Origin: Chloroflexota bacterium
GTDB lineage: Bacteria; Chloroflexota; Dehalococcoidia; Dehalococcoidales; RBG-16-60-22
Length of the DNA: 64,000 nucleotides
Reading direction: 5' to 3'
Assembly (NCBI GenBank): GCA_018829775.1
Contig: JAHJTL010000005.1
Coordinates: 6,506-70,505 of the forward strand
Under the pieces are notes generated by a model. It was not told the DNA's origin. It searched no databases and saw only the letters and a list, made by a program, of their open reading frames with translations. Each line of letters starts with the position of its first letter. Within the stretch, counting starts at the first letter, position 1. The translations under genes and the position numbers were made by a program. Shown here piece by piece: positions 1,859 through 54,923 of this stretch.

Positions 1859-3538
1859 TTATCTATTTTTGCTCATTCTTTTCTCTGTTCTGCGTATCAT
1901 ATACCAGATAAACAGTATAAGCAGGCCACCAATTACGGCTAATGTATACATCAGCCAGTCGGGCATCTCGGATACGGGAGCTATTTTAATTTCACCAGTC
2001 TCGGTCCATTCTCCAGCATTTGAAGCGCTATCCACCGCGCGTAATCTCCAGTAATATGACCTTCTTGGGTGCAACAACTGGGTTGTACTTGAATCCACCA
2101 GGTATTCGGAATCGGTCAATCCTGTCTTCTCAAGAAAGATGCCCTCTGCTGAGAAACCGACATCGTTGGCTAATTGGAAGGTGTAAGTTACCGGCATGCT
2201 CTCGTCAGTGACATCTTCCCAATCAATAAAGATTTCAGCTCCTTCTTTTACCACCAGCGAGGTACCCAACAATAGATTCGGTTTTTCTGGAGCTTCCGTT
2301 TCAACTGCAAAGGCTAATTCTTTGATATTGAGGCCATCGCTTATGGTTATGATATGTTCGCCGTGCTCGCTGATTGGGATATTGAAAGAGGTCAGGAATA
2401 TTCCTCTCGTATTAATGGCAGTTGACGTTACCGACTTATTGTCATATTTAATGGTTAAAGTTCCACTCTCAACAAACCCTGTACCGCTGACAACCACTTC
2501 TACCCCAACATGACCGCTTAACCGGTTAATCTCGATAATAGCGGGTTGCTTGGGCGGTTCAGGAGACGAGGGCTTGGGAGTAGTAATTATTGTAAATTTG
2601 GCTATTTGTATATTTTCACCGTCATCGATTTCTATTTCATATAATCCCGCGTCCAGATCCGGTATGGAAAATGTAGCTACAAAGTCTCCCACGCTATCGG
2701 TCTGTTTAGTGGCTACCTCGGCTTTATCAAAATATATGGCAACGTTTTTCCTTCTGCCAAAGCCGGTGCCCAGAACTGTAACCGATGTCTCTGCCGCTCC
2801 CGACGTTGGATTGACGGTGACATCGGGTTCCACGGTGAATTCTGCAATTACTGCGTTTTCCGCCTGGATAACGGTAATACTGTGTATTCCAGCGGTGCTT
2901 TTCGGAATAGTAAGATAAGCGGTAAAATTACCCGAGCTATCGGTCTCTGTATCGCCACTGTCAATACCTAAATCGATTCCATCATAGTGGATGGATATAT
3001 CTTCATCGGGAAAAAAGTCAGTTCCTATGATTTCGACAGAAGTACCTACCGTGCCTTCATCCGGCTCAATGGCAATATCGCCGAGGCCGACTTCGAATTC
3101 CGCGACTGCCCTGATTCTCGGTGCCAGGACATTGCCCATATAGTGGCAAACGTATATGTAATAAATGCCGGCATGTATCTTTTCTTCATCGGCGCCGTCA
3201 TTTAATTCCTCGGGCACAACAAATTCTGTGTCAAATTCGCCATCGTAATTTAACCAGACCCCTTCCGCAACAAGCTCGTACCTGGTAACATCGCTGTCTA
3301 TGTCATCATCTGTGGTCGCTTCTTCACTGGAAAAGAAGACAGCCGCAAATTTATCGGAGTCGGCCGTGCTTTTGTTAAAGCCCTCACCGGCGACTCTGAT
3401 TTTATCTCCTATCCCTCCTTCAGAAGGGTATACATATATTGCCCTTTCTTCTTGAGCGAGTGCGGAAAGCTCAGGTTGTGTAAAAAGGCAGAGAAAAGAT
3501 GCCAGCCATGTCAGGAAAATTATTTTGAGGATGTTCAC
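1859..3538 (-). CDS. Secreted, membrane-anchored surface protein with tandem Ig-like (IPT/TIG-like) repeats and an FN3-like module
   Basis: 559 aa with an N-terminal signal peptide and several ~85-aa beta-rich repeats (..V.V.G.GF..). It also has a Pro-rich linker (TPKPSSPEPPKQP) and a C-terminal TM helix plus basic tail (WLMYTLAVIGGLLILFIWYMIRRTEKR). Confidence 0.6.
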   Translation of the reverse strand: MNILKIIFLTWLASFLCLFTQPELSALAQEERAIYVYPSEGGIGDKIRVAGEGFNKSTADSDKFAAVFFSSEEATTDDDIDSDVTRYELVAEGVWLNYDGEFDTEFVVPEELNDGADEEKIHAGIYYIYVCHYMGNVLAPRIRAVAEFEVGLGDIAIEPDEGTVGTSVEIIGTDFFPDEDISIHYDGIDLGIDSGDTETDSSGNFTAYLTIPKSTAGIHSITVIQAENAVIAEFTVEPDVTVNPTSGAAETSVTVLGTGFGRRKNVAIYFDKAEVATKQTDSVGDFVATFSIPDLDAGLYEIEIDDGENIQIAKFTIITTPKPSSPEPPKQPAIIEINRLSGHVGVEVVVSGTGFVESGTLTIKYDNKSVTSTAINTRGIFLTSFNIPISEHGEHIITISDGLNIKELAFAVETEAPEKPNLLLGTSLVVKEGAEIFIDWEDVTDESMPVTYTFQLANDVGFSAEGIFLEKTGLTDSEYLVDSSTTQLLHPRRSYYWRLRAVDSASNAGEWTETGEIKIAPVSEMPDWLMYTLAVIGGLLILFIWYMIRRTEKRMSKNR

Positions 3539-3581
3539 GATTTGGCTCCTTACTGAAAATTAATTTACCCTGTGGACTTAA

Positions 3582-3609
3582 ATTATAGCTTTATCTGGTG
3601 AGATGTCAA
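3582..3609 (-). promoter_or_regulatory. Strong sigma-70-type promoter (copy 1 of the recurrent module) for the surface-protein gene
   Basis: Minus strand reads GGTATTGACATCTCACCAGATAAAGCTATAATT, i.e. TTGACA-N16-TATAAT, about 40 nt upstream of the start at 3538. Confidence 0.7.
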
Positions 3610-3762
3610 TACCTGTAACGAACTGGAATGGAGTAGAGGATAGGTTGAAAATCATGGGTAACCGCCGGAGAAATGTTCACACAAATCTAACTGGAATTCG
3701 ATAAATTGCAGATATTACTAAAGAAGCGGTGGTGACAGTACTAAAAGGTTAGGTTAAGGTGC

Positions 3763-3790
3763 TTGTATATGATTACAGGAGGCTTATAAT
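3763..3790 (+). promoter_or_regulatory. Promoter candidate for the GIY-YIG gene
   Basis: TTGTAT (3763-3768), 16-nt spacer, TATAAT (3785-3790). Confidence 0.45.
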
Positions 3791-3822
3791 AGCAGTACGC
3801 GAATAAACAGGGGGTGTTGGAG

Positions 3823-4125
3823 ATGGTGCTCATGGGGGATGTCTTCAGATTCGCGGAAGATTCCATTGATTCTGCCCCGGAACGAGAGGGCGTTTATGCT
3901 CTATATCGAGGTAATGAGTTGATTTATATCGGAAAGGCAGAGCAGGGAGATACTATCAGAGCGAGATTGCAGAGCCATTTATCAGGTGAAAACCCGTGCA
4001 CTAAAGAAGCTACTGCTTATCGTTATGAAATCTGTGATTATCCAAGACACAGGGAAGAGTTGTATCTAAAGGTGTACAAAGTGTCTTATTTGAAATTGCC
4101 TCGCTGTAACAATCAGGGCAGTTAG
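3823..4125 (+). CDS. Small stand-alone GIY-YIG domain protein
   Basis: Motif EREGVYALYRGNELIYIGKA...IRARLQSHL matches the GIY...YIG...R...H core. I prefer ATG 3823 (GGGGGTG SD 6 nt upstream) over the GTG at 3814 in the ORF track. Confidence 0.55.
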   Translation: MVLMGDVFRFAEDSIDSAPEREGVYALYRGNELIYIGKAEQGDTIRARLQSHLSGENPCTKEATAYRYEICDYPRHREELYLKVYKVSYLKLPRCNNQGS

Positions 4126-37197: not shown

Positions 37198-38553
37198 CTA
37201 AACGCTCGGATTAACAACGCGTCCAATAAACAGTATCGTGCCGGTCTCAATGTCTCTAATCAGAAAGATGAAGGGTCGATCAACCGTAACCTCGACCGGA
37301 GGAGCGGGCACCGCTGTGAGCGTCATTATCACCGCTGTGGCTGCTGCTGCTTCGGTGCCGGCCTCATCGACGGAGACAAAAGCCTTGTGCAGGACGTCAT
37401 CTATGGCGAGGTCCCGGTTGCCCGTCATGCCAGAAAAATCCGCGTCCGCAGAGAAAGCCACCGGCATGCCCATCGTTGTCAGGGCCTTCTTCAGGCTGAA
37501 TTCGGATTCGAACTCAAATTTTGGTATCGTCAGGTTAACCTGCTGGCCTGCAAGGCTTGAAATAATCCCGGTAACCCGCTGGTAACCCATTGAGCTTTCG
37601 AAAGTCTCAAACCGGCCTTCCCTGGGGAGTAAAATAACCATCGAGAGTTCATGGCCATCGTAGGGAAGTTCCACTGCCTGGTAATCGTCTCCCTCGGCAT
37701 AGCCGAACGATTCCGTTTGTGTCATCATCGGCACGATGACCTCTCCGCCATCCAGCAGGTAGAAGGGACCATCGGTAGTCGCGTCCTCGTTGAACGGAAA
37801 TTGCCATGCCGCGTTAAAGTAAATGGCATTGGTTAAGACAAGACGTGTTAGTGCATCAATCGCACCCTCTGGAATCAGGTCTTCAATCCTGCCCTCGGTC
37901 TGTTCACTTATCCAGTCATTGATGGTGATTCGAGATGCCTCGGGGGCATTGACGAAATCAAGGGCCCTTAACCCGGCACCGTAGTTTTCAGCCAGGACAT
38001 CAAGGAATTCGGAGAGGAATCTGTAGTCTTCCTGACCCCATATGGCGTTCACGATATTCAGGCGAAAGCCCTCTTCATCCTTCCCCTGGGCACCCTCACC
38101 GCGTTTGCTGAGCTCGATATCAAGGCCGTTAAATGCCGGATGCAGGCGATCCTGGGATAGGACAAAGCGCAGGGTGTCGGACATCTGCTTCTCGGTCTCG
38201 CCGCGGGCACTGGAGTAGGTCATCGCCAGTGCCTGGGAGATACTGTATGGAGAAAAGAAGACATTGTTATTCTCCTGTCTAAGTAACTGATAAAGGTCGA
38301 AAGCGAAAGCGCTGTTCTCTTCGACCAGCATGGTGAAATCGGATTCATTTACTTCAGGCGAAGTTATTCGCGGCTTCTCTGACTGGAGTATATTGACTGA
38401 TATGGGTGCAGGAGTTGGAGATGGTGGAGGCGATGGAGCAGGAGCCGGGGCCGGGGCTGGAGAAGGAATCGGCTGAGGTGTGGCACATCCTGACATGATA
38501 AGAGTAACCAGACTTAAAAGAACGATTCCGGCAGATAATCTCGTTTTACTCAT
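37198..38553 (-). CDS. Serpin-family protease inhibitor, lipoprotein with Pro/Ala-rich linker
   Basis: Lipobox LIMSGC, then PSPAPAPAPAPSPPPSPTPAP. Serpin core (FSPYSISQALAMTY..., NAIYFNAAW) and hinge/RCL (DEAGTEAAAATAVIMT). ATG 38553 has a GAAAGAGG SD. Confidence 0.85.
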   Translation of the reverse strand: MSKTRLSAGIVLLSLVTLIMSGCATPQPIPSPAPAPAPAPSPPPSPTPAPISVNILQSEKPRITSPEVNESDFTMLVEENSAFAFDLYQLLRQENNNVFFSPYSISQALAMTYSSARGETEKQMSDTLRFVLSQDRLHPAFNGLDIELSKRGEGAQGKDEEGFRLNIVNAIWGQEDYRFLSEFLDVLAENYGAGLRALDFVNAPEASRITINDWISEQTEGRIEDLIPEGAIDALTRLVLTNAIYFNAAWQFPFNEDATTDGPFYLLDGGEVIVPMMTQTESFGYAEGDDYQAVELPYDGHELSMVILLPREGRFETFESSMGYQRVTGIISSLAGQQVNLTIPKFEFESEFSLKKALTTMGMPVAFSADADFSGMTGNRDLAIDDVLHKAFVSVDEAGTEAAAATAVIMTLTAVPAPPVEVTVDRPFIFLIRDIETGTILFIGRVVNPSV

Positions 38554-38631
38554 GTTGACCTCTTTCTCAGCTGCTTTCTGCATTATATAACGAAAAAGGT
38601 AACGGAAGGTTAGTAAAATCGTGGATACTTA

Positions 38632-47952: not shown

Positions 47953-47987
47953 AAAAAGAAAAGGGGAGCTGACGCAATATCAGCTCC
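47953..47987 (-). terminator. Rho-independent terminator of the carbamate kinase operon
   Basis: GGAGCTGA (47965-47972) / TCAGCTCC (47980-47987) form an 8-bp stem with a 7-nt loop. On the minus strand it is followed by CCTTTTCTTTTT. Confidence 0.65.
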
Positions 47988-48034: not shown

Positions 48035-49018
48035 TTACCGGGTAATCCGGGTGCCGGTCTTTCCCTCCAGCGCTTTTAGCGCAGTCTCAGGAAAGGTTAT
48101 AATCACCTCTCGCTCCCGCGACGGGTCTGTCTCTTCCAGGAATATTATGGCCGCCCGGATCTTGGGTTCCATGCTTCCCCTGCCGAAGTGTCCGTCCTCC
48201 AGAAGCTTCCTGGCTTCTGCCAGGCTCAGGTTCTCCAATGCCTTCTGGTGAGGCGAGGCAAAGTCTCGATATACGTGCTCCACAGCCGTAAGAATAAAGA
48301 GGACGTCAGCATCGATCTCTATAGCCAGGCGGGCTGAGGCGTAGTCCTTGTCGATTACCGCTTCAACGCCGCGCAAATTGCGATTGTCCTCCCTCACCAT
48401 CGGGATTCCGCCCCCGCCGACAGCGATTACTATCTCACCGGCATCCAGCATGCTCTTGATAATCCTGGCTTGCTGGATGTTGATCGGTATCGGCGAAGGA
48501 ACGACGCGACGGTAGCCACGGGCGCTGTCTTCGATGATATCCCAGCCCTTCTCCTGCCGCAGCTGTTCCGCCGTGTTTACGTCGTAGAAGGGACCGATGG
48601 GTTTGGAGGGGTCTTTGAAGGCGGGGTCATTCTTGTCCACTATCACCTGAGTCACCACGGTGGTGATATTATGCGGTGCCCCCGCCTGTCTCAGATGGTT
48701 GGCCAGAGTATTCTGAATCATGTAGCCCATGTACCCTTCTGTCTGTGCTCCCAAGACATCTAGGGGCATGGGGGGCACCACGTTTTTTGCCGCCTCATCG
48801 GCGAGGAGTAAGTTGCCAACCTGCGGCCCGTTCCCATGAGTGATTACGACACGGTTCCCACTGCTGAGCAAATCCAGCAGCTGTTCAGCCGTGCGGTCCA
48901 AATTCTCATATTGTTCGTCGGCGGTTCCCTTCTCCTTTGCCCTGAGGATAGAGTTGCCACCAAGAGCAATCACGAATGTCTTGGTTTTGTTTTTATTCGA
49001 AACCATTTCTCTACTCAC
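48035..49018 (-). CDS. arcC: Carbamate kinase
   Basis: 327 aa. FVIALGGNSIL...VVITHGNGPQVGNLLL...GGGGIP. Confidence 0.9.
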   Translation of the reverse strand: MSREMVSNKNKTKTFVIALGGNSILRAKEKGTADEQYENLDRTAEQLLDLLSSGNRVVITHGNGPQVGNLLLADEAAKNVVPPMPLDVLGAQTEGYMGYMIQNTLANHLRQAGAPHNITTVVTQVIVDKNDPAFKDPSKPIGPFYDVNTAEQLRQEKGWDIIEDSARGYRRVVPSPIPINIQQARIIKSMLDAGEIVIAVGGGGIPMVREDNRNLRGVEAVIDKDYASARLAIEIDADVLFILTAVEHVYRDFASPHQKALENLSLAEARKLLEDGHFGRGSMEPKIRAAIIFLEETDPSREREVIITFPETALKALEGKTGTRITR

Positions 49019-49110
49019 CTATTGCACTGCGATGAGGGTGCTCTCTTCCTGTTTCACAGGAAGAGAGCACCCTGCTTCAGCAGATGACTCGTAGAATAAG
49101 GCCTAACTTT

Positions 49111-50670
49111 TTAGTAACGTATGGCTCGGGCCACCTCTTCCTCAGAGGGGGCTTCGAAAATCGCCTCATGCTTTGGCGGGTCTTGCTTCTGGGTTAGCAG
49201 GCACACTGGTACCATCACAAGGAGCGAGACAACCGGCGGAATCAATGTTTCCAAACCGGCCAAATGCTCCGGAATATAAAAGATGCCAAATGCTGGATTG
49301 CCTACTGAAAAGAACAAGATCAATCGAAGGATGGAACCAACAACAACGGCTGACAAAGCCCCGTACGCATTTGCCTTTTTCCAGTATATGCCCAGCGTCA
49401 GAGGAACCAGGCATCCGGCAAAAACCACGTCGAAAGCGAGAACCAGCATCATCCCCGGCTCAGGTTTTACGTAGGCCAGCCAGACCGAAAATGCCATTAC
49501 CGGTATAAGCCAGAGCCGAGCCCACCATAGAAGCCTGTTGTCCAGAACGTGCCAGTCAACAGCTAGCTCTTCAACGCTCACTCCTAATTTTTTGGCTTTT
49601 CTTCTATGTAACGGCAGTAATATGTTTCTGTGCAGTATATTCCGGCCAAATACGGCGGATACGGCCAGTGCCCCCCCGTTGGCAGTGGACAGGCCAGCAC
49701 CGATAACGCCAGCCATAACGAATAGTCCGATGCCCAGAGGCATGGCAGTTGCCGCCAGCACTATAACTGACCTGGGGTCATCGATTTCTGGAAGGAACTG
49801 GAAGGCCATCAAACCAATGAATGAAGCGGCCAGTCCCAGTATGAGCGTGAACCCGGCGCCCCACAAACAGCCCCTTCGAGCTGTTTCCGGGTTCTTAGAG
49901 GCAAAGACTCTTTCCATGAAATCAAGGGCAACCACGTCACCAATGCCGAGCGCCAGGATACCCGCCCAATTCAAAAGCGCCCCATTTTCTATTGAGTATA
50001 AACCACTTAGGTCGGCGTAGCCAGGTGGAATTGCCGCGGCAAAGAAGCCCCAATCACCGCCACCGATGCTGAAAAATATCCAGAGAGCTCCACCAACGAA
50101 TGCCAGCAAAGCGGGATATAGCTGCACTATGTCTGTGGCCGCACATGAGAAAAGCCCGCCGCTAAATGTATAGGCAAGGAGAAGGACACTCATTATGAGC
50201 AGTGCCGGGAAATACTCTACGCCAAAAATCATGTGGATTATCCAGGCGGCACCGGCCAGGTTGCCCGCAACCAGGATGCAAAAACTGAAAGACATGAGCA
50301 GTCCAACGGGGACTTCTACTAGGCGGCTAAACCTCCTGAAGTAGAAATCGGCCAGTGTTATCAGGTTCATCCGGTTCAGGGGCTTGGCGTACCATATCGC
50401 GACGACAACAAGGCACAAAGCCAGCCCCAGCGGGAACATGAATCCAGCCCAGAACCCGAAGGTATACACGCCGCCTGCATTACCCAGCGTGGCGTTGGCA
50501 TCCAGTGCCTGGGCGAACAACATGGTGCCTATCAGGAAAAGGGGCAGTCGCTTTCCAGCAATGATGAAGCGCCTTCCACTCCCCCGTACCAAGAAATACA
50601 TGGATATACCAACGAGGACGTAAAACGCCACAAGGATAATCAAACCAATCTGATAACCGTCCATGCGCAC
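49111..50670 (-). CDS. Sodium:solute symporter (SSS) family transporter
   Basis: 519 aa, about 13 TM. N-terminal YFLVRGSGRRFIIAGKRLP is typical of the SSS family. Confidence 0.8.
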   Translation of the reverse strand: MRMDGYQIGLIILVAFYVLVGISMYFLVRGSGRRFIIAGKRLPLFLIGTMLFAQALDANATLGNAGGVYTFGFWAGFMFPLGLALCLVVVAIWYAKPLNRMNLITLADFYFRRFSRLVEVPVGLLMSFSFCILVAGNLAGAAWIIHMIFGVEYFPALLIMSVLLLAYTFSGGLFSCAATDIVQLYPALLAFVGGALWIFFSIGGGDWGFFAAAIPPGYADLSGLYSIENGALLNWAGILALGIGDVVALDFMERVFASKNPETARRGCLWGAGFTLILGLAASFIGLMAFQFLPEIDDPRSVIVLAATAMPLGIGLFVMAGVIGAGLSTANGGALAVSAVFGRNILHRNILLPLHRRKAKKLGVSVEELAVDWHVLDNRLLWWARLWLIPVMAFSVWLAYVKPEPGMMLVLAFDVVFAGCLVPLTLGIYWKKANAYGALSAVVVGSILRLILFFSVGNPAFGIFYIPEHLAGLETLIPPVVSLLVMVPVCLLTQKQDPPKHEAIFEAPSEEEVARAIRY

Positions 50671-50774
50671 TCTCCTTTACTTTTTTTAGTTTAAGGAAGA
50701 TTCATCCATTATAATAATTTTCAAGAAGCACCCCGGCACGGGGCGCCGCATTTTACCTGGTCTCAGAGCACTCA

Positions 50775-51962
50775 TCAATAACCCTCAATCTGTTTGGGGA
50801 AGTAATCCTCGCATTTGCCCTCGCGATAGACGTCCAGCGTGGTGCAATGCAGAGCTCCACCAAACGGGATCACCTTTTCATACGGGATGGGGACCACCTC
50901 AAAACCGAGCTTATCCAGCTGCTCACAGTACGCTGTCTCGTGCGCCTCCACACAGACCGTCTTCGGGTCGATGGAGAAGGTGTTCATTGATATCCACGAC
51001 TTACCCTCATACAGCCCGGTCAGGTATACCTTGTTCTTATGCACGTGGACCGGCCTCGCTGCGGGAATCAGTTCCCAGTCGTTTATCTTGAATAATTCCC
51101 ACATCTCCGGAGTACGCGGCGCCCAGTCTGGATTGTATACTGCCAGCCCCGGCCGCAGCGGTACCAGGTTCACATCGATGTGCCACGGGTGATAGTTGTC
51201 CGGTCTGTCAGGCGAGGGGGGCCAGGGAGTGTCGAACAGGACATGGTGCACCCTGATGCCGAGCGACGCGAACATACGCTTCAGCCAGTCCATGCCACCC
51301 TTGTTCGTCACGCACGAGCCCTGGTGGAAGATGTCCTTACCAAACCGCATGGCATCGGCGGCGTCCCACAGTGGTTCCTTCTCGGACAGCTGGAACTCCC
51401 AGTTGTGCAGCCTCTGCTTCTTCTGCTCATCCGTCCACGTATGCTCGAAGTCATAGTAGTAGTTCCTGACGTAGGACTCATCCGTGAGCATCGGTATGGG
51501 CGCTGCAAAATGAACTACCCCGGGGTCTTCCTTGAAGTACCGTTCAAAGATCGGCCGGAGATTCATACGTTCCCAGTAGCGTGTTCGACGGCAGGTCGTG
51601 GCCTCAACGATGTAGTTGCCATGAATCATGGTGATGTCGCGGGTGTTGTTGACGCCATGGCAGTTAAGCTGCGTCCAATACGGGTTCGAAACCGGCACAT
51701 TCAGCATGAAGGGCTGAATGTCTACTCGCTCGACGGTGACGCCCCGCTTCTCAAGCACTGACACTAAATAGTTCATCTGCTCGTTGGCCGCATCCACCAT
51801 CTCCTGCGGGAACGGTCCCCACTGCCCCAGCGGAAACCCGCCCAGCGGGAGGTCATACCACCAGGCCGGTTCCGGAGCCGGAACGTTAGTGCCCTCTGGC
51901 CTTCCTATGATCACACGCTTCAACGGGTCCCATTCATTCCAAGAGTTTACGATCTTTGCCAT
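50775..51962 (-). CDS. Amidinotransferase, L-arginine:glycine amidinotransferase (AGAT/StrB1)-like
   Basis: Collinear with my recollection of AGAT: NSWNEWDPLKRVIIG, FDAADAMRFGKDIF, WHIDV, and GGALHCTTLDV with the catalytic Cys. AAAGGAG SD. Confidence 0.8.
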   Translation of the reverse strand: MAKIVNSWNEWDPLKRVIIGRPEGTNVPAPEPAWWYDLPLGGFPLGQWGPFPQEMVDAANEQMNYLVSVLEKRGVTVERVDIQPFMLNVPVSNPYWTQLNCHGVNNTRDITMIHGNYIVEATTCRRTRYWERMNLRPIFERYFKEDPGVVHFAAPIPMLTDESYVRNYYYDFEHTWTDEQKKQRLHNWEFQLSEKEPLWDAADAMRFGKDIFHQGSCVTNKGGMDWLKRMFASLGIRVHHVLFDTPWPPSPDRPDNYHPWHIDVNLVPLRPGLAVYNPDWAPRTPEMWELFKINDWELIPAARPVHVHKNKVYLTGLYEGKSWISMNTFSIDPKTVCVEAHETAYCEQLDKLGFEVVPIPYEKVIPFGGALHCTTLDVYREGKCEDYFPKQIEGY

Positions 51963-51999
51963 TGCAATACACTCCTTTTAATGTACTCTTTGCTCTGAC

Positions 52000-52044
52000 T
52001 CAGGCTGTGCCGTAATCTCTCCTGGCACTATTCATTTCTACCAA
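52000..52044 (-). CDS. 14-codon upstream ORF (MVEMNSARRDYGTA) in the amidinotransferase leader
   Basis: TTG start 6 nt after the strongest SD I noted in the window (AAGGAGGTGA, 52060-51). It contains tandem Arg codons AGG AGA and stops 37 nt before the amidinotransferase ATG. Confidence 0.3.
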   Translation of the reverse strand: MVEMNSARRDYGTA

Positions 52045-52120
52045 ATTGAATCACCTCCTTCTCTGGATTGTACATTAACTTTTGTCATTCTCTATTTTCA
52101 AACAATCGCAATTGCAACAG

Positions 52121-52189
52121 AGGGTGTATCGAACACCCAAATCGTACTCGGTACCGAATTACCGATACGAGGGGAAAACGATACACCCT
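52121..52189 (-). promoter_or_regulatory. 69-nt extended imperfect hairpin/palindrome between the COG2403 gene and the amidinotransferase gene
   Basis: The outer stem is a perfect 11 bp, AGGGTGTATCG/CGATACACCCT. The inner stems are CGTA-TCGGTA / TACCGA-G-TACG plus CCC/GGG. No U-tract follows. Confidence 0.5.
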
Positions 52190-52234
52190 TCTCCCGCACC
52201 ATAATTTTCACACCTCTCCGGAAAAGTTTGTTTT

Positions 52235-53584
52235 CTATTTCATGGGAAGATTATGCGCCTTTCCAAACTCGGATAATATTTCGCCCAAGTTCGGCGTTCC
52301 GATTTCCTGAAGGTCATAATAGACCCTCGTGTTCGGTTTCTTGATGTCGATGAGCCTGCTTAAGTCGATAGGGGTGGCCACCACCACCGCATCACAATCG
52401 GTCTTGTTGATGGTCGCCTCCAGGTCTTTAAGCTGCTGTTGGCCGTATCCCGTTGCCGGCAGGAGTGTTCCGATATTCGGCCAGAGTTTGAAGGTCTCGG
52501 TGATGCTTCCGACGGTGTAGGGCCTGGGGTCTACCAGTTCTGCTGCGCCGTACCGTTGAGCAGCAACCGTACCCGCGCCTATTTTCATCTCTCCATGCGT
52601 TAGCGTAGGGCCGTCTTCGATAACAAGCACTCTCTTTCCCTTGATTACATCCGGATTATCAACCCGAATCGGAGAGGCGGCATCAACTACGATTGCATCC
52701 GGATTTACCCTGGCAATACTATTTCGTACCTTCAGGATATTCTCGGGAGCGGCGCTGTCGATTTTATTGATAACCACCACATCGGCGATTCTCAAGTTGA
52801 TTTCCCCGGGATAATAGGAAACCTCATGGCCCGGACGGTGAGGGTCGGCAACAGTTATCATCAGGTCGGGCTTGAAGAACGGGAAGTCATTGTTCCCCCC
52901 GTCCCAGACGACAACATCGCAGCCTTTAGGGTCTTCTTCGGCAGCCCTTAAAATGGCCTGGTAGTCCACCCCTGCGTATATAACGTTTCCGCGTGTGACG
53001 TGCGGCTCGTACTCTTCCATTTCTTCGACGGTACATTTGTGCTTCTCCAGGTCCCCCAGCTCGGCAAAGCGCTGTACCTTCTGGGCAACCAGGTCACCGT
53101 ACGGCATGGGGTGGCGTACGGCGATGACTTTCAAGCCCTTTTCCATGAGAAGCTCTATGACCCTTCTCGAAGTCTGGCTCTTGCCGGAGCCCGTTCTCAC
53201 CGCACAAACTGCGATAACAGGTTTCTTGCTTGTGAGCATCGTATCCCTGGGTCCGAGCATCATATAGTTTGCCCCGGCGGCATTTACGATGGCCCCGACA
53301 CCCATCACGTGCTGGTAGGATACATCGCTGTAGGAAAAGACACAGGTATCAACATTCAACTCTTTTATAAGCTGCGGCAATTGCTCCTCCGCGTAGATTG
53401 GGATTCCCTCCGGATAGAGATTGCCTGCCAGCTCGGCCGGATATGGTCTCCCGGAGATGCCGGGTACCTGGTGTGAACCGGTGAAGCCTACCACGTTGTA
53501 CTCTTCGTTGTCCCTGAAATACATGTTGAAGTTGTGAAAGTCTCTTCCCGCAGAGCCGATAATAAGTATATTTTTCTTCCTCAT
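52235..53584 (-). CDS. COG2403-family P-loop protein (usually annotated cyclic 2,3-diphosphoglycerate synthetase / predicted GTPase); possible arginine synthetase-like enzyme
   Basis: MRKKNILIIGSAGRDFHNFN N-terminus and Walker A-like AVRTGSGKSQT. ATG 53584 is preferred over the TTG at 53659. The family was recognised from memory. Confidence 0.65.
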   Translation of the reverse strand: MRKKNILIIGSAGRDFHNFNMYFRDNEEYNVVGFTGSHQVPGISGRPYPAELAGNLYPEGIPIYAEEQLPQLIKELNVDTCVFSYSDVSYQHVMGVGAIVNAAGANYMMLGPRDTMLTSKKPVIAVCAVRTGSGKSQTSRRVIELLMEKGLKVIAVRHPMPYGDLVAQKVQRFAELGDLEKHKCTVEEMEEYEPHVTRGNVIYAGVDYQAILRAAEEDPKGCDVVVWDGGNNDFPFFKPDLMITVADPHRPGHEVSYYPGEINLRIADVVVINKIDSAAPENILKVRNSIARVNPDAIVVDAASPIRVDNPDVIKGKRVLVIEDGPTLTHGEMKIGAGTVAAQRYGAAELVDPRPYTVGSITETFKLWPNIGTLLPATGYGQQQLKDLEATINKTDCDAVVVATPIDLSRLIDIKKPNTRVYYDLQEIGTPNLGEILSEFGKAHNLPMK

Positions 53585-53679
53585 AATTACTTCTTGCTCT
53601 CTGATTTTGTTTTCCTCTTTCTTGACCTGGGTTCCTGCATAAAAGGGGACATCCTTCAAAAAAAGACGGAGTTGTCGTC

Positions 53680-53708
53680 ATTATAGAGATTTACTTACCA
53701 CTTTGCAA
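53680..53708 (-). promoter_or_regulatory. Promoter of the COG2403-amidinotransferase-SSS-arcC cluster
   Basis: Minus strand reads TTGCAA (53708-53703), 17-nt spacer, TATAAT (53685-53680). Confidence 0.55.
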
Positions 53709-53811: not shown

Positions 53812-54585
53812 TCAAGGGAAGAGTTTTTCGACGTCGCGGACTGAGTCGAAGATATAGTCCGGGACAACAACTGGAGATTCCAAATCGCTTTCCCGGAACT
53901 CCCCCGTTTTTACCAGCGCTGTCTTAAGACCTGCATTTTTGGCACCCAGAATGTCAGCCCTGACCCTGTCTCCCACCATAAGGATTTTGCTCCTGTCGAC
54001 ATTTCCCATGGTATCGAGGGTGATATCGAAAATGTAACGATTCGGCTTTCCGATATAAGTGGCCTTGATGCCGGCAGCGTCTTCGAGCATTTTCCCGTAA
54101 GCTCCCACCGTTAGCTCCATCTCTCCCAGACTACTGTCCACGGTTTCTGTAATCATAACTATCAATTTTGCGCCTTTGCAGAGGAGCCGGACTGCCTTGT
54201 TCAGGTTCTGAAAATTGAAATCCTCGCGGAAATCTCCAAGAACAAGATACTCGGGATTATCCGGGTCGTGCCGGAAATTGCGAAACTCCTCCAGTCCTTC
54301 CCCCTTTAACCATACCCAGCAAGACCTCGGACTCAGGGTTTCCAGATATCGAGCGGTGGCAAAAGAAGCGGTAACGACCTCGTGCTCGTAAATGCTGAAA
54401 CCCTTCTTGTTTAGTTTTTCCGTGCATGACCTCCTGCTTTTTAAGGTACTGTTGGAGAGGACTCGAATGGGAACCCGCCTTCTGCGAAGCGAAACGAGTA
54501 GCTCGACGGCTCCAGAATAGGCTTTTCCCTGGAACTCGAGTACCCCGTCGAGATCGAATATGACACCTTCTATCTTGTCTTTCAC
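53812..54585 (-). CDS. HAD-superfamily subfamily IIA hydrolase (NagD-like phosphatase)
   Basis: VIFDLDGVL (motif I), SNS (motif II) and MVGDRVRADILGA (motif IV). Confidence 0.8.
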   Translation of the reverse strand: MKDKIEGVIFDLDGVLEFQGKAYSGAVELLVSLRRRRVPIRVLSNSTLKSRRSCTEKLNKKGFSIYEHEVVTASFATARYLETLSPRSCWVWLKGEGLEEFRNFRHDPDNPEYLVLGDFREDFNFQNLNKAVRLLCKGAKLIVMITETVDSSLGEMELTVGAYGKMLEDAAGIKATYIGKPNRYIFDITLDTMGNVDRSKILMVGDRVRADILGAKNAGLKTALVKTGEFRESDLESPVVVPDYIFDSVRDVEKLFP

Positions 54586-54846: not shown

Positions 54847-54923
54847 TGGTGGGCAGTAGAGGACTTGAACCTCTGACCTCTGCGATGTCAACGCAGCGCT
54901 CTAACCAACTGAGCTAACCGCCC
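54847..54923 (-). tRNA. tRNA-Val (anticodon GAC), CCA encoded
   Basis: The reverse complement folds as a canonical cloverleaf: GGGCGGT TA GCTC AGTTGGTTA GAGC G CTGCG TTGACAT CGCAG AGGTC AGAGG TTCAAGT CCTCT ACTGCCC A CCA. Confidence 0.92.

Follow-up and report, generated by a model that had tools for sequence, protein, structure and literature searches.

An arginine synthetase-like gene cluster with an AGAT-type amidinotransferase in a Chloroflexota genome: a possible catabolic route for guanidino compounds

The four-gene cluster and its enzymes

A 64,000-nucleotide stretch of contig JAHJTL010000005.1 from a Chloroflexota bacterium (hereafter the window) carries four co-directional open reading frames (ORFs) on its minus strand, all confirmed at positions 48035–53584 by an ORF check of the window, which are considered here as a candidate pathway for the catabolism of guanidino compounds. 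From 5′ to 3′ these encode an ArcE-type (COG2403) P-loop enzyme, which is a putative ADP-forming arginine synthetase (52235–53584, 449 aa from ATG), an AGAT-family amidinotransferase (50775–51962, 395 aa), a sodium/solute symporter of the SSS family (49111–50670, 519 aa from GTG) and the carbamate kinase ArcC (48035–49018, 327 aa from GTG). An earlier note on this DNA had named the four minus-strand genes and their families, rightly so in view of the matches to TIGR00746 and PF00474, the phmmer searches and the archaeal homologues of the COG2403 protein. The motifs that it quoted (IIGSAGRDFHNFN, AVRTGSGKSQT, NSWNEWDPLK, HID and GGALHCTT) are present, one motif having been slightly misquoted by a single letter, such that the sequence is WDAADAMRFGKDIF and not FDAADAMRFGKDIF.

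ArcE, the TK2200 protein of Thermococcus kodakarensis, catalyses the reaction Arg + ADP + Pi <-> Cit + NH3 + ATP (Michimori, Yokooji and Atomi 2024, PMC11032458), as the earlier note had rightly stated. The reaction has a delta-G0' of -6.8 kJ/mol toward citrulline, in other words it is exergonic in the direction of citrulline and ATP, and the combination of ArcE with ornithine carbamoyltransferase (OTC) and carbamate kinase gives 2 ATP per arginine; arginine synthesis in vivo can also be supported by the enzyme (PMC11032458). Its homologues are described as widespread in bacteria, often annotated as 'GTPase' and weakly similar to cyclic 2,3-diphosphoglycerate (cDPG) synthetase, with Desulfurococcales and Thermoproteales amongst the named carriers (PMC11032458). 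In this regard, the window protein is 50% identical to a homologue from Ignisphaera aggregans (P0411), 56% to one from Desulfurococcales (P0401), 55% to one from Thermofilum (P0425) and 45% to one from Thermoproteota (P0262), all four alignments being collinear over ~435 residues. Thermococcus itself has no entry among the listed matches of the homologue and profile searches, in which relatives from Thermoproteota, Desulfurococcales and Ignisphaera are present, and support for the membership of the window protein in the ArcE family comes by proxy only, via homologues in ArcE-carrying lineages.

Within the ArcE family alignment the Walker A motif TGSGKSQT (AVRTGSGKSQT in the window protein) and the motif WDGGNND are invariant. 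No Pfam or NCBIfam model matches the protein. The phmmer match to solved cDPG synthetases covers only ~100 residues (222–326) with 33 bits, and for the AlphaFold2 model (pLDDT 92) the nearest fold in Foldseek is that of cDPG synthetase, at 16% identity and a TM score of 0.44, followed by LpxK-type P-loop kinases. A cDPG synthetase identity was rejected on these values, and the separation of the protein from the true cDPG synthetases, on which the earlier note had relied, is upheld. Names given to ArcE-type proteins in databases, either 'GTPase' or 'cyclic 2,3-diphosphoglycerate synthase', are misleading.

The second protein belongs to the guanidino-group modifying enzyme superfamily, and has full-length homology over residues 5–388 to SxtG, HsvA, AGAT and StrB1 (phmmer E values of 1e-52 to 2e-33). 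In all of 87 homologues its catalytic triad (C373, H261 and D200) and its two guanidinium-binding residues, D109 and D263, are unchanged; the human AGAT equivalents of D109, D200, H261, D263 and C373 are D170, D254, H303, D305 and C407, respectively. The seven best Foldseek matches to the structural model (pLDDT 76) are all amidinotransferases (E values of 1e-32 to 1e-28, target TM scores of 0.82–0.89), behind which rank the hydrolases of the superfamily, DDAH, arginine deiminase (ADI) and ArgZ/AgrE, at E values of 1e-12 or worse. From both the sequence homology and the fold ranking the window enzyme is predicted to be of the transferase type and not a deiminase; an ADI-, DDAH- or ArgZ-type hydrolase identity was rejected on the same two grounds. 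No Pfam-A or NCBIfam family is matched at E <= 0.001. The database names of the clade are misleading here too, being 'serine/threonine protein kinase' at NCBI and 'glycine amidinotransferase' at JGI.

The carbamate kinase scores 403.3 bits against the TIGR00746 equivalog (cut-off 358.25), and PF00696 is also matched. Neither OTC nor ADI is found in the 64-kb window by a motif scan, by Pfam scans of the larger ORFs or in the precomputed Pfam results for 43–64 kb, in agreement with what the earlier note had said of these two enzymes. In relatives, the carbamoyltransferase which lies within the cluster is a bona fide OTC, its TIGR00658 score being 430 bits (cut-off 281). A carbamoyltransferase for putrescine, or for any substrate but ornithine, was rejected, as the putrescine model scores 285 bits where 500 are required. 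Since OTC is specific for ornithine and citrulline, arginine and citrulline are placed at the centre of the module. The symporter matches PF00474 with 84 bits (cut-off 22.8, E value 1e-23), and falls far under the cut-offs of the NCBIfam equivalogs (PutP, PanF, ActP). Its closest solved relatives are the high-affinity choline transporters CHT1/SLC5A7 (E value 2e-12), which carry small organic cations.

Co-conservation, gene neighbours and flanking features

A scan with the amidinotransferase, taking one genome per species, gave 79 loci which were screened with the window proteins; the non-redundant set comprises 30 loci with an orthologue of at least 64% identity, where all counts are within the fetched flank and many of the contigs are short. 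Among these 30 loci ArcE is present in 15, carbamate kinase and the symporter in 13 each, OTC in 11 and a HAD phosphatase (see below) in eight. The arrangement ArcE-amidinotransferase-symporter-carbamate kinase recurs in Dehalococcoidia (L008, L019, L020 and L031, with OTC also in L031 and L019), the arrangement OTC-carbamate kinase-ArcE-amidinotransferase-symporter occurs in Desulfobacterota (L006, L009, L010, L016 and L018) and in a Sysuimicrobiota metagenome-assembled genome (MAG; L013), and the order amidinotransferase-ArcE-OTC is seen in Aminicenantes (L024) and Eubacteriales (L025). Moreover, paralogues of 45–50% identity lie beside OTC, ArcE or carbamate kinase in seven further loci (L043, L049, L056, L059, L064, L068 and L076), the hosts of which are Acidimicrobiia, Holophagae, Anaerolineales and Desulfosarcina. 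The cluster with a bona fide OTC is spread over Dehalococcoidia, Desulfobacterota, Bacillota, Acidobacteriota (Aminicenantes and Holophagae), Actinomycetota, Anaerolineales and Sysuimicrobiota, and the co-conserved genes are shared by at least five phyla. Given that the same neighbours appear in many genomes of several phyla, the clustering is far beyond chance, and the variation of gene order between phyla argues for selection on proximity. In an Actinomycetes MAG (L051, 8629–10699) ArcE is in two pieces and the amidinotransferase is partial, so that either the cluster is in decay there or the assembly is at fault.

When metagenomes were scanned for the window ArcE, 80 loci (L087–L166) at 69–87% identity were obtained, of which 16 contain OTC, 14 carbamate kinase and seven the amidinotransferase. 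Bacterial ArcE-type proteins are unusually conserved (69–87%) across these very different metagenomes, and most of the 80 loci have no OTC, carbamate kinase or amidinotransferase within 6 kb. A contiguous OTC-carbamate kinase-ArcE unit is seen in L006, L009, L010, L016, L068, L124, L130 and L146. In a neighbour-joining tree the ArcE copies that lie beside an amidinotransferase are intermixed with those that do not, no alignment column separates the two sets, and the mean identity between them is 71.6%, as compared to 72–75% within them. The idea of ArcE as a neofunctionalised paralogue dedicated to the amidinotransferase clusters was rejected on the basis of the interleaved tree and the lack of a discriminating column. 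From these alignments ArcE looks like a fixed and very slowly evolving core enzyme of generic kind, and the amidinotransferase like an optional feeder of its arginine-to-citrulline step.

The symporter gene follows a different pattern from that of ArcE. It lies 3′ of the amidinotransferase gene in 13 of the 30 orthologous loci, in none of the 73 ArcE loci without an amidinotransferase, and it also occurs beside the amidinotransferase where ArcE is missing from the flank (L004, L011 and L014). The occurrence of the symporter thus follows that of the amidinotransferase rather than that of ArcE, which suggests that the compound it carries belongs to the amidino-transfer step and is not arginine. 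The symporter type, together with the absence of an arginine/ornithine antiporter, fits with the retention of ornithine by the cell.

Beyond the orthologues, the amidinotransferase family is also found in tandem arrays. Three copies are present in each of two loci (L030, 10001–18534, and L036, 10001–13615) of one Anaerolineaceae MAG, six in total, two copies lie in L027 (1731–4215), and further arrays are seen in L034 and L062, the tandem paralogues being 43–69% identical to the window amidinotransferase. Such arrays suggest a diversification of substrates. The recurrent neighbours of the family are class-III aminotransferases (16 loci), PotA-type ABC importers (13 loci) and arginase-family proteins (seven loci, of which the L010 copy scores as agmatinase), accompanied by aldehyde dehydrogenase or aldehyde:ferredoxin oxidoreductase, TRAP binding proteins, and Lrp/AsnC, GntR and sigma-54 regulators. 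The aminotransferases are of GABA type in L064, omega type in L043 and ornithine aminotransferases in L024 and L025. This pattern of neighbours fits with the catabolism of varied guanidino-amines and guanidino-acids, the amine products of which are then transaminated and oxidised. Homologues of 43–44% identity occur in SAR11 (Pelagibacteraceae; L073, L082, L084 and L085) and other marine Alphaproteobacteria (within L075–L083), with no ArcE, OTC or carbamate kinase in the 10-kb flank and often beside PotA-type polyamine ABC transporter genes; these may have a different job from that of the window clade.

Around the four genes in the window there are several features which plausibly bound them as a unit, as judged from the sequence. 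Upstream of the ArcE-like gene is a sigma-70-like promoter candidate on the minus strand, TTGCAA-N17-TATAAT (53680–53708, 10/12 consensus matches), and 3′ of the carbamate kinase gene a pattern search gives an intrinsic-terminator-like hairpin with a T-run (47955–47987, minus strand, stem-loop 47987–47965), with a 9-bp stem of which five pairs are G-C, a 5-nt loop and the tail CCTTTTCTTT; between 46 and 56 kb no other site of this kind is as strong. Both sites had been put forward in the earlier note as the bounds of the unit and both are indeed found. Promoter-like sites number 14 as compared to 8.2 +/- 2.6 in shuffles, and terminator-like sites 10 as compared to 10.7, so that sites of this kind, occurring at about background frequency, are candidates and not proof of the unit boundaries. 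The intergenic gaps within the unit are 272, 104 and 92 bp, and because the largest of these holds a second promoter-like site (52094–52067) a single transcript is unproven.

This 272-bp spacer between the ArcE-like and amidinotransferase genes (51963–52234, minus strand) also contains a very stable hairpin (~52113–52198, z = -3.7) and a Shine-Dalgarno-like element, GAAGGAGGTGA, at 52061–52051, behind which come a start codon and a mini-ORF (1–14 codons). The Shine-Dalgarno-like element and start codon are kept in three Dehalococcoidia relatives (L008, L031 and L020). The spacer has no Rfam match, and a comparison of four relatives shows neither conservation nor covariation of a structure; a structured RNA was dropped as a candidate, the strong fold having no covariation behind it. 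No riboswitches, including the guanidine classes, are found in the window or in 22 cluster loci.

Directly upstream of the four-gene unit lies the gene of a HAD-IIA phosphatase (53812–54585, minus strand), LHPP-like and similar to TIGR01458, which it matches with 154 bits, under the cut-off of 176; a terminator-like hairpin (53782–53763) is placed between this gene and the unit. The best solved relative of the protein is human LHPP (E value 2e-31), a phosphatase of P-N bonds. Copies of 61–87% identity are near the cluster in eight of the 30 loci, copies beside modules include those in L006 (3348–4109), L013 (5602–6345) and L031 (5971–6738), and others are near ArcE-OTC-carbamate kinase without the amidinotransferase (L090, 8034–8801; L130, 148–909). 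From this distribution the phosphatase may be an accessory of the arginine synthetase module of ArcE, OTC and carbamate kinase, where the removal of an N-phospho side product, or action on phosphagens, are possible roles.

The nearest relatives of the window proteins are from Dehalococcoidia. The 449-aa ArcE-like protein is identical to a gene call in NCBI assembly GCA_043824655.1 (JBDRSR010000011.1), and the NCBI start calls are shorter for the symporter (517 aa as compared to 519) and carbamate kinase (323 aa as compared to 327). The amidinotransferase (compared with L001, 11623–12810) and the HAD protein are 99%, and not 100%, identical to this otherwise matching record, and the exact amidinotransferase sequence of the window has no database record. 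Base composition shows nothing distinctive that would indicate horizontal transfer. Elsewhere in the window, a tRNA-Val (GAC) gene (54847–54923, minus strand) is just upstream of the HAD phosphatase gene, and a full-length serpin (37201–38628, minus strand; PF00079, 399 bits) is encoded in what is a probable Dehalococcoidia genome.

A possible amidino shuttle and its alternatives

The most economical reading of the gene content is that of a catabolic 'amidino shuttle', in which the arginine synthetase pathway has acquired a new front end; we hold this reading to be about evenly balanced between right and wrong. The SSS symporter would import a guanidino compound, R-NH-C(=NH)NH2, from which the AGAT-type enzyme would take the amidino group onto its active-site Cys, with release of the amine R-NH2, before transferring it to L-ornithine to give L-arginine. 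ArcE would then convert arginine, ADP and Pi to citrulline, NH3 and ATP, whereupon OTC, presumed to be encoded elsewhere in the source genome and found within the cluster in relatives, would carry out the phosphorolysis of citrulline to carbamoyl phosphate and ornithine, the latter being reused. Carbamate kinase would form a second ATP from the carbamoyl phosphate. Overall, one guanidino group would yield 2 NH3, CO2 and 2 ATP by substrate-level phosphorylation, with ornithine acting as a catalytic carrier.

This energy scheme is in essence that of the earlier note, which is partly supported. It came through three of that note's own tests, concerning cDPG synthetase, co-conservation and OTC (the last by way of relatives that have the gene in the cluster), and is strengthened by the gene neighbourhoods across phyla. 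The gene identities, the intact catalytic residues and the co-conservation stand; the direction of flux, the ornithine acceptor, the imported compound and the role of the symporter we infer from gene content only. A broader form of the proposal, tentatively held and at slightly under even likelihood, is that diversified catabolic amidinotransferases serve as interchangeable front ends, which would pass the amidino groups of many environmental guanidino compounds to ornithine and thence to a single ArcE-OTC-carbamate kinase core for the harvest of 2 ATP. Candidate donors are guanidinoacetate, guanidinopropionate, guanidinobutyrate, taurocyamine, agmatine, homoarginine and possibly free guanidine.

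Several observations weigh against the catabolic shuttle. The first concerns the amidinotransferase itself. In human AGAT the residues N300, M302, R322 and S355 are those which we take to hold the alpha-amino/alpha-carboxylate end of arginine or ornithine, and all four are changed in the window clade (N300 to H258, M302 to W260, R322 to W280 and S355 to K321), in which an insertion of 11 residues also precedes the catalytic His. An arginine, R283, follows three residues after W280, and HMMER and MAFFT do not align the stretch around R322 in the same way; in most of the more distant paralogues the R and S of AGAT are retained. With the residues of the amino-acid end changed and the insertion present, the use of ornithine or arginine is unsupported by residue conservation. 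The second concerns the partners of the enzyme, in that half of the orthologous loci have no ArcE, OTC or carbamate kinase in the flank, though many of these contigs are short, and that OTC, if present in the source genome, must lie outside the boundaries of the 64-kb window. The third is that the ArcE reaction is taken over for the bacterial enzymes, by analogy, from the archaeal one. Moreover, the reactions of the pathway are all reversible, so that its direction is not fixed by gene content, and neither the window nor the 22 cluster loci contain a riboswitch or regulator which points to the substrate. Finally, in L024 and L025 an ornithine-oxo-acid transaminase (922–2142 and 2706–3914, respectively, both minus strand; 527–533 bits against TIGR01885, cut-off 378) is divergently adjacent to amidinotransferase-ArcE-OTC, which points to net degradation of ornithine rather than its pure recycling and fits plain arginine catabolism.

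Ordinary catabolism of arginine or citrulline is indeed the alternative which survives best, unlikely as it appears. Here the symporter would import arginine or citrulline, and the amidinotransferase would have a side role, either in amidino salvage for biosynthesis or in the balance of ornithine and arginine. ArcE in the sole company of OTC (16/80) and carbamate kinase (14/80) is common, the ornithine aminotransferases of L024 and L025 adjoin the amidinotransferase-ArcE-OTC genes as they would in a degradation of arginine to glutamate, and the window cluster contains no enzyme for the carbon skeleton that would be released from a guanidino donor. Against this, the symporter is found in 0/73 of the amidinotransferase-free ArcE loci, and it does occur with the amidinotransferase in three loci without ArcE. 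It is also hard to square a side role with the adjacency of ArcE and the amidinotransferase across phyla, or with paralogue expansions flanked by varied importers and aminotransferases.

Rather improbable, in our estimation, is operation of the same steps in the synthetic direction, in which carbamate kinase and OTC would make citrulline, ArcE would make arginine, and the amidino group would be passed to an imported amine. The guanidino product (an osmolyte, a nitrogen store or a phosphagen-like compound) would then cost 2 ATP, with ornithine again as the carrier. Reversibility of all the steps allows for this, ArcE can support the synthesis of arginine in vivo (PMC11032458), and all AGAT-family enzymes that have been characterised work in biosynthesis, with arginine as donor (SxtG, AGAT, HsvA and StrB1). 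Carbamate kinase, on the other hand, is normally catabolic, and disruption of arcC in T. kodakarensis had little effect on the supply of carbamoyl phosphate (PMC13260591). The neighbours of the family are likewise importers, aminotransferases, aldehyde-oxidising enzymes and regulators of catabolic type, with no further tailoring or export genes, and the hosts are energy-limited anaerobes.

A distinctly improbable alternative is that the bacterial ArcE-like protein acts on some other guanidino or ureido compound, for example in an ATP-coupled deimination of the imported compound itself. The sole characterised member of the family is the archaeal TK2200 and no curated model covers it, which gives room for such a function, but the partner carbamoyltransferase is clearly of the ornithine type and would make citrulline the ureido intermediate, nothing tells the ArcE copies beside an amidinotransferase from the other ArcE copies, and full-length identity to the homologues in archaeal ArcE lineages reaches 50–56%. 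Lastly, that the amidinotransferase homologue is a hydrolase (a deiminase or amidinohydrolase), turning the imported substrate into a ureido compound or urea, is highly improbable, for, despite a Cys-His-Asp machinery common to the transferases and hydrolases of the superfamily and a remodelled substrate-binding loop, some 16 orders of magnitude in E value separate the transferases from DDAH, ADI and ArgZ as matches, and a deiminase would make ArcE redundant and leave the ornithine-specific OTC unexplained.

Relation to known systems and significance

The closest counterpart to the proposed amidino shuttle is the arginine synthetase pathway of T. kodakarensis (ArcE TK2200, ArcB and ArcC), with which it shares the COG2403 enzyme family, carbamate kinase and, in relatives, OTC, along with an expected yield of 2 ATP per arginine. 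It differs in the insertion of an AGAT-type amidinotransferase and a symporter, such that the expected input is not arginine itself, and in its hosts, which are mesophilic or subsurface bacteria where the cluster is known from its genes alone. With the ADI pathway, arcABC(D), it has in common the harvest of ATP from the ureido group of citrulline by OTC and carbamate kinase; there is no ArcA in the window, though, deimination presumably being ATP-forming through ArcE, and a symporter and amidinotransferase are present instead of an arginine/ornithine antiporter. The agmatine deiminase pathway (AguA, putrescine carbamoyltransferase, carbamate kinase and an antiporter) is likewise a fermentation of a guanidino compound other than arginine via carbamoyl phosphate. 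That pathway, however, employs direct deimination and a dedicated carbamoyltransferase, whereas here the OTC is specific for ornithine, onto which the amidino group would have been passed beforehand.

Amongst single enzymes, AGAT/GATM, StrB1, SxtG, CyrA, HsvA and AmtA have the same fold as the window amidinotransferase, with 27–35% identity and an identical catalytic Cys-His-Asp and guanidinium-binding Asp. These enzymes use arginine as donor in the building of creatine, antibiotics and toxins, in contrast to the catabolic and reversed role, with ornithine as acceptor, that is proposed here, and the window clade differs from them in the 11-residue insertion, the changed substrate-end residues and the presence of ArcE, OTC and carbamate kinase as partners in place of biosynthetic genes. 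For ArcE the corresponding comparison is with cDPG synthetase, which is the nearest solved fold and supplies the NCBI name of some homologues, in spite of the low identity and TM score given above.

Guanidino metabolites are usually degraded via a urea-producing pathway (2025 review, PMC12623156). The ureohydrolases (guanidinobutyrase, guanidinopropionase, agmatinase and creatinase) resemble the proposed route in removing the amidino group and freeing the amine for catabolism, but they release urea and conserve no energy, as against the 2 ATP that the amidino shuttle would gain. A search of the literature, incomplete in its coverage such that a prior description is possible, found no paper which joins arginine synthetase with an amidinotransferase.

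If the proposal is correct, the cluster would constitute an undescribed energy-conserving anaerobic pathway, in which two ATP are obtained per guanidino compound and ornithine is recycled, and an AGAT-type enzyme would for the first time be assigned to catabolism. The arginine synthetase reaction, known since 2024 from one archaeon, would be extended to many bacterial phyla, and a function would be given to a large, highly conserved and mis-annotated family of amidinotransferases, as well as to the equally mis-named ArcE family. For the anaerobes of the subsurface and sediments, Dehalococcoidia, Desulfobacterota and Aminicenantes amongst them, guanidino compounds would then be an unrecognised fermentative source of energy and nitrogen, and the arginine synthetase reaction would gain ecological importance in sediments and aquifers that are starved of energy.

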